Shown here one piece after another: positions 23,259 through 45,389 of a DNA stretch of 64,000 bases. Below the pieces are notes generated by a model, which made no database searches, was not told where the DNA came from, and saw only the letters and a list, made by a program, of their open reading frames with translations. The stretch comes from an uncultured Chloroflexia bacterium (GTDB lineage: Bacteria; Chloroflexota; Dehalococcoidia; DSTF01; WHTK01). The DNA lies in assembly GCA_963732945.1 (NCBI GenBank), contig CAVTBL010000017.1, positions 187,298 through 251,297 on the forward strand, written 5' to 3'. Made by a program: the position numbers and the translations under genes. Positions within the stretch are counted from its first letter, which is position 1; each line of letters starts with the position of its first letter.

Positions 23259-23334
23259 GCCAAGGTAGCTCAGTCGGTAGAGCACAGCTCTGAAAAAGCT
23301 GGGGTCGCCGGTTCGAATCCGGCCCTTGGCACCA
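23259..23334 (+). tRNA. tRNA-Phe (anticodon GAA), CCA encoded
   Basis: GCCAAGGTAGCTCAGTCGGTAGAGCACAGCTCTGAAAAAGCTGGGGTCGCCGGTTCGAATCCGGCCCTTGGCACCA folds as a canonical cloverleaf with anticodon loop CTGAAAA. Confidence 0.95.
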
Positions 23335-35388: not shown

Positions 35389-35464
35389 TGGCGCGCTGAG
35401 TGGGACTCGAACCCACGGCCTCAGCCTCCGCAGGGCTGCGCTCTATCCGCTGAGCTACCAGCGC
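35389..35464 (-). tRNA. tRNA-Arg (anticodon GCG as read), CCA encoded
   Basis: GCGCTGGTAGCTCAGCGGATAGAGCGCAGCCCTGCGGAGGCTGAGGCCGTGGGTTCGAGTCCCACTCAGCGCGCCA. Anticodon stem CAGCC/GGCTG, loop CTGCGGA. Confidence 0.9.
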
Positions 35465-35469
35465 ATCAA

Positions 35470-35557
<88 letters not shown>

Positions 35558-36467: not shown

Positions 36468-36536
36468 TCACAGCGGGAGTAGCCTCGCAACACGAGTCCC
36501 AAGCAGCGAGGCGCAACCATGTACAGGCCCGGTCGC

Positions 36537-37682
36537 ATGAAGTTCGGCATCTTTATGGCGCCATTCCACCCCGTGGGCGAGAACCCAACGCTGGCGATCG
36601 AGCGCGACTTCGAGCTGATCGAGAAGCTTGACGCGCTGGGCTACGACGAGGCCTGGGTCGGCGAGCACCACAGCGCCGGCTGGGAGACGATCGCGTCGCC
36701 GGAGGTGTTCATCGCTGCCGCCGCCGCGCGCACGAAGCACATCAAGCTCGGCACCGGCGTCGTCTCGCTGCCCTACCACCACCCGCTGATGGTCGCGGAC
36801 CGTATGGTGCTGCTCGACCACATCACGCGCGGTCGCGTCATGTTCGGCGTCGGCCCCGGCGCTCTACCGACCGACGCCCTGATGCTCGGCATCGACCCCA
36901 ATCTGCAGCGGCCGCGTATGAACGAGGCGCTGAAGGTGATCATGCGCCTGTTCAGAGACCCGGAGCCGTTCACCTACGAGAGCGACTGGTTCACCCTGCG
37001 CGAGGCGCGTCTGCAGTTGAGGCCGTTCACGCAGCCGCACATGCCCGTCGCCGTCGCGGCCGTGACTTCGCCCGCTGGCATGGTCGCGGCGGGCGAGGTC
37101 GGCGCCGGCGTGCTGACCATGGACGTGCCGCGCGGCCGCGACGCCACGGCATTGGCCGAGTTCTGGAGCATCGCCGAAGACACCGCCGACAAGCACGGCA
37201 ACGTCATGGACCGCGGCGAGTGGCGCGTCGTGCTGCACGTCCACCTGGCGGAGACCCGCGACGAGGCGCTGCGTCAGATGCAGCATCGCGGCGGACGCTA
37301 CCGCAAGGAGTACAGCGAAGGCACCACAGGCTCCGCGCAACCGACCGACTTCGGCGTCGACGAGGTCGCCGAGCATCTCGTAACGTCGGGCGCCTGGTGC
37401 GTCGGCACACCCGACGACCTGATCGAGAAGATCGAAGAGCTACAGCACTACACCGGCGGCTTCGGCGGGCTCATGGTCCAGGCCGTCGACTGGGCGAACG
37501 CCGAGCACCTGCACCATAGCTACGAGCTGCTGGCGCGCTACGTCATGCCGCACTTCCAGGGCAGCCTCGAGGGCATCATGGCGTCGAAGGCAGACGCCTC
37601 GGCGAAGCTGGCGCATCTGCGCACCGTACGCCAGGCGGCGCTGGACAAGGCCCGCGAAGACTACACGGCGGGTCGCACCTAG
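36537..37682 (+). CDS. LLM-class (luciferase-like) flavin-dependent oxidoreductase
   Basis: MKFGIFMAPFHP ... LGYDEAWVGEHHS ... typical LLM N-terminus. The internal ATG was chosen. Confidence 0.8.
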   Translation: MKFGIFMAPFHPVGENPTLAIERDFELIEKLDALGYDEAWVGEHHSAGWETIASPEVFIAAAAARTKHIKLGTGVVSLPYHHPLMVADRMVLLDHITRGRVMFGVGPGALPTDALMLGIDPNLQRPRMNEALKVIMRLFRDPEPFTYESDWFTLREARLQLRPFTQPHMPVAVAAVTSPAGMVAAGEVGAGVLTMDVPRGRDATALAEFWSIAEDTADKHGNVMDRGEWRVVLHVHLAETRDEALRQMQHRGGRYRKEYSEGTTGSAQPTDFGVDEVAEHLVTSGAWCVGTPDDLIEKIEELQHYTGGFGGLMVQAVDWANAEHLHHSYELLARYVMPHFQGSLEGIMASKADASAKLAHLRTVRQAALDKAREDYTAGRT

Positions 37683-37809
37683 ACAGACGCCGGCCCGCAT
37701 ACGACTCTCCAACCCTGTCAAGGGCTGTCCGTCCGTCGAACGAAGGGCGTGGCGGCTCTGCCCAACCTGGCGCCGGTGCTCTAATCTAAGGGTGTCGGAG
37801 GTAACACAA

Positions 37810-37905
37810 ATGAAGGGGTACTTCACCAACACCAGAGTGCTCTTCATGGTCTGGCAGGTTGAGATGCAAGGCGCTGTGAAGGCGCTTCAAGTCTCGACTC
37901 GCTAA
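37810..37905 (+). CDS. Candidate small ORF (31 aa, MKGYFTNTRVLFMVWQVEMQGAVKALQVSTR)
   Basis: GGAGG 8 nt upstream of the ATG and GC-rich third positions. No homolog that I recognise. Confidence 0.35.
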   Translation: MKGYFTNTRVLFMVWQVEMQGAVKALQVSTR

Positions 37906-38000
37906 CCGGCAGCCGTGACCAAAGCCGGGACCTCAGCCCGTAATGGGCGGCCTACTCGATTCGAGTAACCTGGTACGAACCGGGAGCCGGCCGAGACTCA
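37886..38000 (+). ncRNA. Unassigned structured region (possible ncRNA or structured 3' UTR)
   Basis: Closing helix GTCTCG...CCGGC (37890-37910) with GCCGG-C-CGAGAC (37986-37997). Internal hairpins GCCC-GTAAT-GGGC and TACTCGA-T-TCGAGTA. No match to any RNA family I can recall. Confidence 0.3.
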
Positions 38001-38028
38001 AACAAACAACGACGAACCAAATATCAAA

Positions 38029-38062
38029 CGTCCCGAGAGGTCCTCGGGGCGTTTCTCTTTCT
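38029..38062. terminator. Bidirectional intrinsic terminator
   Basis: 9-bp stem cgtcccgag / ctcggggcg, loop aggtc, with T-rich tracts on both strands (gtttctctttct and tttgatattt). Confidence 0.6.
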
Positions 38063-38097
38063 CGTTGCGTCTGTCGGGCTACAACGCCTGAGTGGCC

Positions 38098-38916
38098 TCA
38101 GGGTCCCCCGGGCGGCTCGTCGGCCGAAACGAGCGCGGGCTGCACGACAACAGCCTCTGGCACGGTTCGATGCAGCGCGACGGCGGTGCTCAGGCCCCAG
38201 ATCAGGCGGCTGCCGAGCATCAGGGCCGGGATCGGCGTCGGGAAGAAGCAGGCGATTGCGATTACGACGTTCAGCGCCGCAAGCGGTTTCGGAAACGCCG
38301 CCGAGCGCCAGATTGGATACGCGAGGATGAGCAGGCCGACGCCGAACGATACAAGCGCGGCGTACTGCAGGATCTCGTACTCATCCCCCATGGTGTCGCC
38401 GATCTCGATGATCACGGCCGGCGGCGCCAGGTGGTTCACGTAGTCGAAAGACGTTCCCACCAGGTTGCCGTACTGGCCGAACGCCGCCGCTGTAACACAC
38501 GTGCTCACGATCAAGAACATCGCCGCGAGAATCACGTAGGGCCGGTCGTCTTCGTCGACAGCGAATGCGAATCCCAGGATGATTGGCAGCGAGAAGCCCG
38601 CGGCGAATACGCCAGAGGCGCCGCTGATCTCGTAAATCTCCTTATGACTGACGATTCTGGCGAACGTCTGAGCCCAGGCGGTCTCCGTGTAGATGTCGGC
38701 GCCGACGATTCGGTACGTCAGTTGCTGAACGATAAGAAAGGTAGCGAAGAGGACTGCTGATGCTGATGCCAGCCTAATGAGGCCACTCGAGCGTTGGTCT
38801 ATCGTTGTCGGAGCCTCCCCCTCGTTCGGCTCACTGATTCTAGCCTGCACGCACCTGAGGCACCACATCTTCAGCACCAACATGCTTCGGTGTGCTGGAG
38901 GTACCCGGCCCGGCAC
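38098..38916 (-). CDS. Hypothetical polytopic membrane protein (DUF4386-like topology)
   Basis: About 6 TM segments. The start codon is uncertain because the N-terminal ~40 aa of the track ORF look non-genic. Confidence 0.6.
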   Translation of the reverse strand: MPGRVPPAHRSMLVLKMWCLRCVQARISEPNEGEAPTTIDQRSSGLIRLASASAVLFATFLIVQQLTYRIVGADIYTETAWAQTFARIVSHKEIYEISGASGVFAAGFSLPIILGFAFAVDEDDRPYVILAAMFLIVSTCVTAAAFGQYGNLVGTSFDYVNHLAPPAVIIEIGDTMGDEYEILQYAALVSFGVGLLILAYPIWRSAAFPKPLAALNVVIAIACFFPTPIPALMLGSRLIWGLSTAVALHRTVPEAVVVQPALVSADEPPGGP

Positions 38917-39160: not shown

Positions 39161-39236
39161 GTGGTGGGCGATACAGGACTTGAACCTGTGACCTCTTCCG
39201 TGTGAAGGAAGCGCTCTGCCAGCTGAGCTAATCGCC
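39161..39236 (-). tRNA. tRNA-Val (anticodon CAC), CCA encoded
   Basis: GGGCGATTAGCTCAGCTGGCAGAGCGCTTCCTTCACACGGAAGAGGTCACAGGTTCAAGTCCTGTATCGCCCACCA. Loop TTCACAC. Confidence 0.95.
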
Positions 39237-39393
39237 CCGAAAGCTTTGTGCCCGTCAATTGTACACGCAGCATCCGGCTTGCCGGAATCTGGTCCGGAGG
39301 CTATCCCATCCTGACTGGACGAGAGCGCGCACACGATAGACGAAAGGAATATGATTAGAGCCTTGACGACGTGACCAAGGGAGGAGCAGGCGC

Positions 39394-45061: not shown

Positions 45062-45202
45062 AACCCATCCTCTTTCAGTGGCCTACGAGGTTAGCTGACG
45101 GGTTAGGGCTGAAAGAGCCTGCCCTGTTCTCGTGTGAGAACTACACCCCGAAAAGTGGGTCCCCCGTTCTCCCTCAGCGGAAGGAGACTCGGCCTTAGGT
45201 AC
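45062..45202 (-). promoter_or_regulatory. ydaO-yuaA type c-di-AMP riboswitch aptamer
   Basis: Minus-strand blocks are in the canonical order: ACGGGGGACCCA (45156-45167), CGGGGUG (45144-45150), ACCCGUCAGCUAACCUCGUAGGC (45081-45103), GAAAGAGGAUGGG (45064-45076). These match the conserved cores of the B. subtilis ydaO and T. tengcongensis c-di-AMP riboswitches as I remember them. Confidence 0.8.
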
Positions 45203-45389
45203 AACCCTATGTTACGGACGCCGGCAAAGGCTGTCCAGTAGGGCTACATAACAAACACATTAAAAGCACCGGCACGTTTTCAGGTCGTTTCTGGAAACGA
45301 TTTGTGACTTTTCTAGACTCGATTTGACGGCACTAGAATTTGGCGGTCAGAATAGGCATGAATTTGAAAGCGTAGGCAGGATTCATGAG

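Follow-up and report, generated by a model that had tools for sequence, protein, structure and literature searches.

A candidate family of translated small RNAs linked to pyrE-like genes in Chloroflexota

What is encoded in an intergenic gap to which no protein gene can be assigned? The question arises from the window, the whole 64,000-nt stretch of Chloroflexota DNA analyzed here, in which an initial annotation had described a gap of 400 nt holding a small open reading frame (ORF) preceded by a Shine–Dalgarno (SD) sequence, a closed multihairpin RNA domain, and a terminator. The gap (37683–38097) does separate an oxidoreductase gene of the luciferase-like monooxygenase type from a convergent membrane-protein gene of the DUF4386 type, and it measures 415 nt. 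The SD sequence, its 8-nt spacing to an ATG, and the 31-codon ORF are present as described, and the terminator is also found where it had been placed, with a stem of 12 bp rather than 9 bp. Together, these parts form a discrete unit on the forward strand (37795–38062), comprising a putative –10 box, SD sequence, ORF, a hairpin (H1), a multibranch domain (D2), a linker, and the terminator (Table 1).

Table 1. Coordinates of the unit and its neighbors in the window
Feature	Position	Strand	Basis or remark
Luciferase-like monooxygenase gene	36519–37682	+	5′ neighbor of gap
Putative –10 box, TAATCT	37783–37788	+	Aligned with TAGGCT of the contig C1 paralog; inferred
SD sequence, GGAGG	37797–37801	+	Sequence; 8 nt 5′ of ATG at 37810
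Small ORF, 31 codons and TAA (stop at 37903–37905), MKGYFTNTRVLFMVWQVEMQGAVKALQVSTR	37810–37905	+	Sequence
Family motif codons, R-V-L-F-M-V-W-Q-V-E	37834–37863	+	Family consensus R-V-L-Y/F/W-G-V-W-Q-V-D
CAA at the usual stop-codon site of the family	37867–37869	+	TAA in genus relative; CAA in C1 paralog
Hairpin H1, 7 bp, loop GUGAA, inside the extended ORF of the window copy	37869–37887	+	Folds
Multibranch domain D2	37891–37997	+	Fold of the 3′ part
C/A-rich, G-poor linker	37998–38025	+	Unpaired in every fold
Intrinsic terminator, loop AGGUC, T-rich tail	38026–38062	+	12-bp stem, 38026–38054
DUF4386 membrane-protein gene	38098–38916	–	Convergent 3′ neighbor of gap

Because a consensus promoter scan of the region detected no promoter, we infer the promoter part of the unit, including a transcription start near position 37795. 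At the other end, the terminator may also serve the convergent DUF4386 gene.

The RNA spanning 37795–38062 yields a folding z-score of –3.75, and none of 200 shuffled sequences was equally stable. When the 3′ part is folded alone, the minimum free energy structure contains the D2 closure proposed by the initial annotation (GTCTCG..CCGGC/GCCGG.CGAGAC) with its inner hairpins. The closing helices GUCUCG/CGAGAC (37891–37896/37992–37997) and CCGGC/GCCGG (37906–37910/37986–37990) enclose a long branched arm that ends in a hairpin with a GNRA-like loop (37936–37948), as well as two further hairpins, one palindromic (37953–37967) and the other at 37969–37984. However, in the full-length fold, GUCUCGAC pairs with GUUGAGAU (37858–37865) at the end of the ORF instead of closing D2. 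Thus, D2 closure represents one of two competing pairings, wherein D2 of the window copy competes with a lower-stem extension of H1.

Part of this stretch is present in a number of metatranscriptome runs from soil and sediment, and three RNA runs and one DNA run were aligned to it. A 250-nt soil RNA contig covers exactly 37796–38047, ending inside the terminator; the soil runs X3 and X4 yielded identical contigs and, as possibly one data set, were counted once. A sediment RNA contig, bearing a sequencing adapter at its 5′ end, covers 37806–38001 at a contig depth of ~1085. Both RNA contigs stop short of the flanking genes, whereas a DNA contig (37578–37923) extends upstream past their starts. 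Although contigs cannot fix exact ends or levels, the two studies agree that the transcribed unit begins at the SD sequence and ends in the terminator. Other sediment contigs match just 37849–37886, and their sharing of this segment alone suggests that relatives are expressed there too. These contigs confined to the unit indicate that the window RNA is a discrete small transcript with its own terminator, and it is apparently abundant in nature.

No Rfam 15 family was matched at the gathering threshold in the window region, which agrees with the earlier statement that the element resembles no known RNA family. At E values up to 10, only chance-level matches well short of that threshold were obtained in the region (21.9 bits versus 80 or less), and Rfam searches of 16 homologous loci gave nothing at the element. 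Peptides of the family produced no match in Pfam or NCBIfam, and a search of the ESM Atlas for look-alikes of the peptide gave no usable match. A profile search of 1.84 billion protein representatives recovered the window's own 31-aa product together with no more than five short relatives, and two long proteins that it also returned were dismissed as unrelated repeat proteins. In one database protein (P0003), the motif peptide is fused in frame to ~40 residues that resemble the start of another gene, which is probably a gene-calling artifact. Literature searches on the motif and on pyrE leader peptides found no relevant report. BLAST comparison of the gap with relatives yielded only a 53-nt match in one genome and revealed no close ortholog at the window locus in 17 species of the genus. 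In a genus relative, a short ORF resembling that of the gap lies in another context.

More distant representatives were recovered with patterns and models. A long exact DNA pattern was too strict, matching only 2 of 93 genomes. A degenerate codon pattern for R-V-L-Y/F-x-V-W-Q-V-D/E, applied to the genomes of 185,579 species and to metagenomes, gave 24 genome matches (23 in Chloroflexota) and 20 more in metagenomes, one of which is a chance match. Except for two chance matches, all of these share a common layout of SD sequence, start codon, short ORF, hairpin at the stop codon, branched region, and strong terminal hairpin. A covariance model called R1 was built from the ORF end and H1. Within the window's order, it matches 59 of 61 genomes (58 of 60 if the unpublished G048 is set aside) and 39 of the 40 high-quality ones; in a phylum-wide sample of 150 genomes, it matches 22 at E up to 1e-4. 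The model has no match in the 16 small-genome members of the class that were sampled. The ORF is present at all 30 loci fetched from the R1 search of the order, and many of them encode Trp rather than Tyr or Phe. Weak model matches on contig C3 of the window's genome (G000) and at locus L117 lie inside long ORFs, lack the unit, and were rejected as false positives.

As judged from these comparisons, the unit belongs to an undescribed family that is spread over Chloroflexota and has at least 64 non-redundant members. The small ORF is the conserved core of this phylum-wide family, a fact that lay beyond the view of the initial annotation. Its recurrence in dozens of genomes, the folding z-score, and the RNA contigs together establish that the window unit is more than a chance arrangement.

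Coding statistics were compiled from 64 non-redundant members. Each of these has an SD sequence and an in-frame start codon, compared to 4–5 of 64 for the other two frames. The ORF typically ends in ...R-V-L-(Y/F/W)-G-V-W-Q-V-D-x-stop, wherein V-W-Q-V is invariant. Across the same members, Arg is encoded by all six of its codons and Gly by four, CAG and CAA are used 32 times each, and the wobble position of each Val varies. The segment preceding the motif ranges from 1 to 15 codons and is unconserved, so that the conserved part consists of the last ten residues, and some whole peptides have just 12–14 residues. This restriction of conservation to the C-terminal residues near the stop codon, combined with a variable N terminus, is a feature of arrest peptides. 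The stop codon follows the D/E position after one further codon in 47 of 64 members, directly in 5, and later in 12; it is counted as displaced or lost in 11, among them the window copy. The window peptide, with Gly replaced by Met and Asp by Glu, is the most deviant member at the conserved Gly. Taken together, the codon and residue patterns indicate that the small ORF is under protein-level selection.

Structural conservation is also evident at the RNA level. H1 begins 1–2 nt after the usual stop codon and covaries, and in 20 of the 24 members examined, its start is 36–37 nt away from the preceding Arg codon. In the model-based alignment, which is fitted to the model and thus favors structure, 91.6% of H1 cells are paired, compared to 31–47% for slid controls. 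Changes on both sides of a pair occur in 40 H1 cells versus 8.5 in shuffles, and 0 of 500 shuffles reach 40. D2 covaries as well, in its closing helix and inner hairpins, both in a trkA-linked subgroup, where compensatory changes affect 22 of 80 predicted pairs, and in family f4, where the closing helix contains four double-change pairs. The architecture of D2 is kept, while its sequence and number of branches differ between subfamilies. A strong terminal hairpin is present at 180–260 nt in 63 of 64 members, and A/C-rich linkers similar to that of the window copy occur in other members.

Several additional interactions were evaluated. The lower-stem extension of H1 is unsupported as a family-wide feature (permutation p = 0.18). 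Nor is there support for general pairing between the motif codons and the stretch that follows H1 (mean z = –0.15): such pairing is strong in f5 alone, in line with an RNAalifold prediction, and in f4 the D2 closing helix takes its place. Own-versus-cross duplex energies reveal no co-evolution of the terminator arms with D2 and the linker (p = 0.89 and 0.57), a comparison whose power is limited by the GC-rich arms. Unlike attenuators of the trp and pyrBI type, the family ORF contains no codon runs and ends 120–200 nt before the terminator.

Some subgroups display further predicted features. In f5 (L063–L074 and L084), the last hairpin before pyrE is nearly invariant, GGGCUUUCCCA ... UGGGAAAGCCC, and lacks a U-tail, whereas the equivalent hairpin in f4 has a clear one. 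The f5 hairpin might bind a protein or act as an atypical terminator. In an alignment of f4 (A11), a predicted 5′ helix, AUGAG/CUCAU (columns 7–11/40–44), encloses the SD sequence and part of the start codon, and a long-range pairing is predicted between the W-Q codons (GGCAA) and UUGCC (columns 71–75/296–300). The UUGCC partner sits just past the terminator, beside the pyrE start. In another subgroup (L005–L027), a clade with ~3.5-Mb Chloroflexota genomes, the unit is always located between trkH-trkA and a gene for a 110-aa putative DUF971 protein, and a predicted pairing joins the SD sequence to the R-L-P-L codons of the ORF that it precedes.

The genomic contexts of the family reveal a link to pyrimidine metabolism. 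In every fetched locus of f5 (12 of 12), f4 (10 of 10), and f3 (2 of 2), the terminal hairpin is followed, 10–40 nt downstream and on the same strand, by a pyrE-like gene that encodes a phosphoribosyltransferase of 210–230 aa. The same arrangement is observed in f1, the family of the window copy, on contig C10 of this genome and in G008. Thus, a copy directly precedes a pyrE-like gene in four of the five families of the order, or 26 fetched loci. The best matches of these genes are models of orotate phosphoribosyltransferase, with scores below the NCBIfam curated cut-offs, and the unit-linked gene is the best pyrE-like candidate in the genomes checked. In this order, the canonical member of the family forms the leader of a pyrE-like gene.

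Other copies stand alone. All eight f2 loci carry a single free-standing copy beside a convergent gene, and pyrE of f2 has a short, plain leader. In 18 valid loci of other classes, no pyrE was found within 1.6 kb downstream, and the units are free-standing. Across independent contexts, the downstream gene is oriented about equally either way. Given these free-standing units and the variable orientation of downstream genes, a purely cis-acting role cannot explain the whole family. In the genus relative G004 (L091, contig C3), a TTGACA resembling a promoter element and a ~55-nt leader precede a pyrE-like gene, and a strong terminator lies directly before its start codon; this leader lacks a mini-ORF, H1, and D2, and the only family member of G004 precedes an sdhA-like gene.

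The genome that contains the window carries three credible copies, namely a pyrE leader on contig C10, an orphan on contig C1, and the orphan in the window. The C10 copy encodes the peptide MTDRIRWGVWQVDY followed by a stop codon, and it has an attenuator-type layout in which the small ORF and terminator precede a same-strand pyrE-like gene. In the window copy, the next gene is convergent, leaving no same-strand downstream gene, and this layout is absent. The two orphans are 74% identical and have a promoter region in common. In both, the usual stop codon has become CAA, and each ORF continues across H1 as far as a later stop that the two have in common. The 31-codon length noted initially is therefore due to the loss of a stop that one paralog has lost as well, whereas the usual family ORF stops before H1. 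A similarly extended ORF occurs in one metagenomic relative. A second pyrE-like gene, of the Thermus type (L094, G000:C1:26193–26615), is located ~2.3 kb upstream of the C1 orphan, with an opposite-strand transporter gene between them.

These findings, including the covariation of H1 and D2, support the initial reading of the gap, which saw in it a structured RNA of no assigned family, a small ORF behind an SD sequence, and a terminator. The window unit very probably represents a discrete, translated small RNA of a new family that is linked to pyrE. How such an RNA might operate is a more tentative matter. Of the mechanisms considered, we find most likely, at somewhat less than an even chance, one in which the nascent peptide and the position of the ribosome are decisive. 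The conserved C-terminal peptide would act inside the ribosome and set its dwell time at the end of the ORF, where the ribosome would cover the 5′ arm of H1. Ribosome occupancy would then decide how H1 and D2 fold behind the polymerase, and in pyrE-linked copies this choice of fold would set the frequency of transcription past the terminator located 10–30 nt before pyrE. Because no gene follows the window copy, its product would be the terminated RNA and the peptide. This RNA may act in trans, for example by competing for a factor or ligand used by the pyrE leader. The proposal draws on the stop-proximal conservation, the tunnel-sized peptides, the hairpin abutting the stop codon, and the terminator before pyrE in most of the order, and the free-standing copies suggest that the family also has a role other than cis control of pyrE. 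Against the nascent-peptide reading stand the displaced or lost stop codon in some members, including the window copy, the lack of antiterminator co-evolution, the restricted pairing of the ORF with the segment after H1, the free-standing loci of f2 and of other classes, the downstream genes in either orientation, the scores of the pyrE-like genes below the curated cut-offs, and the deviant Gly position of the window peptide. The full explanation, in which the window copy is a free-standing, translated small RNA of ~260 nt that is an orphan paralog of a pyrE leader and that uses a nascent-peptide mechanism, appears to us evenly balanced between right and wrong.

A more specific version is that G-V-W-Q-V-D constitutes a new metabolite-sensing arrest peptide. 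A pyrimidine-pathway compound would sit in the exit tunnel, the ribosome would stall atop H1 as it reaches the end of the ORF, and the leader would refold to set read-through into pyrE, whereas the free-standing copies would serve as abundant trans-acting sensors or decoys. We regard this version as speculative and rather unlikely.

Other explanations assign the central role to a different part of the unit. It is conceivable, if somewhat unlikely, that the locus is an ordinary small-protein gene whose peptide of 14–31 aa is released and acts in trans, with H1, D2, and the terminator serving only to stabilize an abundant mRNA. The strong protein-level conservation across the phylum, the free-standing units in varied contexts with downstream genes in either orientation, the presence of several copies in some genomes, and the apparently high RNA abundance are all consistent with such a gene. 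However, only the last ten residues are conserved, some peptides have no more than 12–14 residues and lack a hydrophobic or signal segment, and a conserved, covarying 3′ domain of 150–200 nt would be unusual for a plain mRNA. Moreover, the location of unit and terminator just before pyrE in four of five families points to a role in cis. If D2 were instead the aptamer of an undescribed riboswitch that responds to orotate, PRPP, or a uridine nucleotide, for example, and governs the terminator, then the ORF would be accessory and the orphans would be decoys. The branched, covarying domain, which lies 25–35 nt ahead of an intrinsic terminator and, in 26 fetched loci, immediately precedes a pyrE-like gene, fits this proposal, as does the fact that Rfam found no site for a protein regulator such as PyrR. 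Yet the sequence and branch number of D2 vary between subfamilies without an invariant aptamer core, which known aptamers typically retain; no covariation of terminator and antiterminator was found; and the best-conserved part of the unit is the peptide rather than D2. A riboswitch of this kind is distinctly improbable.

Two further explanations concern whether the window copy, or its ORF, is functional at all. The copy might be a decaying, functionless duplicate of a pyrE leader that is transcribed from an inherited strong promoter, as could be argued from the loss of its canonical stop codon, the Gly-to-Met and Asp-to-Glu changes in its motif, the missing same-strand downstream gene, and the BLAST result for the 17 species of the genus. 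This seems doubtful, since the promoter region, SD sequence, reading frame, H1, terminator, and strong fold have all been retained, and since the C1 paralog has lost its stop in the same way and ends its ORF at the same place, with no indel that breaks the frame. The extended ORF of the metagenomic relative and the near-identical RNA present at high contig depth in environmental samples also speak against decay. It is extremely improbable that the unit is a purely non-coding RNA, whether a sponge for proteins or a housekeeping RNA, 6S-like or of another kind, with an incidental ORF. The element is abundant, structured, and nearly universal in the order, and the Rfam 6S model finds nothing either in this genome or in a 96%-complete relative. 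On the other hand, the unit bears a clear coding signature, it folds into a succession of local hairpins, a tmRNA is encoded elsewhere in the genome, and the R1 search did not detect the family in 16 small-genome relatives of the same class. Two specific identities were rejected. The element is not 6S RNA, given that RF00013 gives no match and that the local hairpins do not form a long rod with a central bubble. Nor is it tmRNA, which consists of a tRNA-like domain and a tag ORF without an SD sequence or start codon, whereas the window ORF has an SD sequence and an ATG, and the real tmRNA is located at 112771–113123 of contig C10.

The preferred nascent-peptide reading invites comparison with several known systems. 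The pyrBI (pyrL) and rph-pyrE attenuators of Escherichia coli rely on UTP-sensitive coupling of transcription and translation (see, for example, the review by Turnbough and Switzer). As in these systems, the canonical family copies place a translated upstream ORF and an intrinsic terminator before a pyrimidine gene, which is likewise pyrE-like. However, the family ORF ends ~170 nt before the terminator rather than at or inside it, with a hairpin and a branched domain in the interval; the peptide is conserved in sequence; and free-standing copies such as that in the window regulate no downstream gene.

Another comparison is with regulatory arrest peptides whose action takes place at the stop codon or close to it, namely TnaC, SpeFL, and MsrDL, as well as SecM. 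The family resembles these in having a very short ORF, with a variable N terminus and with conservation confined to the residues that are closest to the peptidyl-transferase center once the ribosome is at the ORF end, and in having an RNA element directly 3′ whose state would depend on ribosome occupancy. In contrast, the motif G-V-W-Q-V-D is unrelated to theirs, the position of the stop codon is not strictly fixed, and no Rho-loading site or SD-masking hairpin was identified in the family.

Dual-function small RNAs include SgrS/SgrT, RNAIII with delta-haemolysin, and SR1/SR1P. Like these, the window RNA is discrete and abundant, has its own promoter and terminator, and combines a small ORF, judged to be coding by comparison, with a structured part. 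Unlike these, the family resides in a different phylum and is also used as a 5′ leader. Finally, some riboswitches and leaders yield terminated transcripts with a function in trans, for example SreA and SreB of Listeria and EutX/Rli55. In the present family, too, a cis-regulatory leader has orphan or terminated copies that accumulate as small RNAs; the family differs in carrying a conserved peptide. Because the family exhibits some defining features of attenuators, arrest peptides, and dual-function RNAs and lacks others, we file it under none of these. Its parts are of known kinds; the family as such is undescribed.

Soil, sediment, and the ocean harbor abundant Chloroflexota, yet to our knowledge almost nothing is known about RNA-level regulation in this phylum. 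The present family of translated small RNAs is invisible to annotation pipelines; it is nearly universal in one order, occurs in several classes, and apparently ranks among the more abundant environmental transcripts. Its link to pyrE offers a testable handle on the control of pyrimidine metabolism in Chloroflexota, and the C-terminal peptide, with its sharp conservation, is well suited as a candidate for a new nascent chain with a regulatory role. In addition, the transition from cis-acting leader to free-standing RNA gene may be illustrated by the orphan copies.

Other RNA features were observed in the window. A c-di-AMP riboswitch (RF00379, 92.9 bits) is located on the reverse strand at 45065–45204. 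Rfam also identifies tRNA genes at 23259–23331 on the forward strand and at 35392–35464, 35473–35555, and 39165–39237 on the reverse strand, one of which lies ~250 nt beyond the convergent DUF4386 gene.
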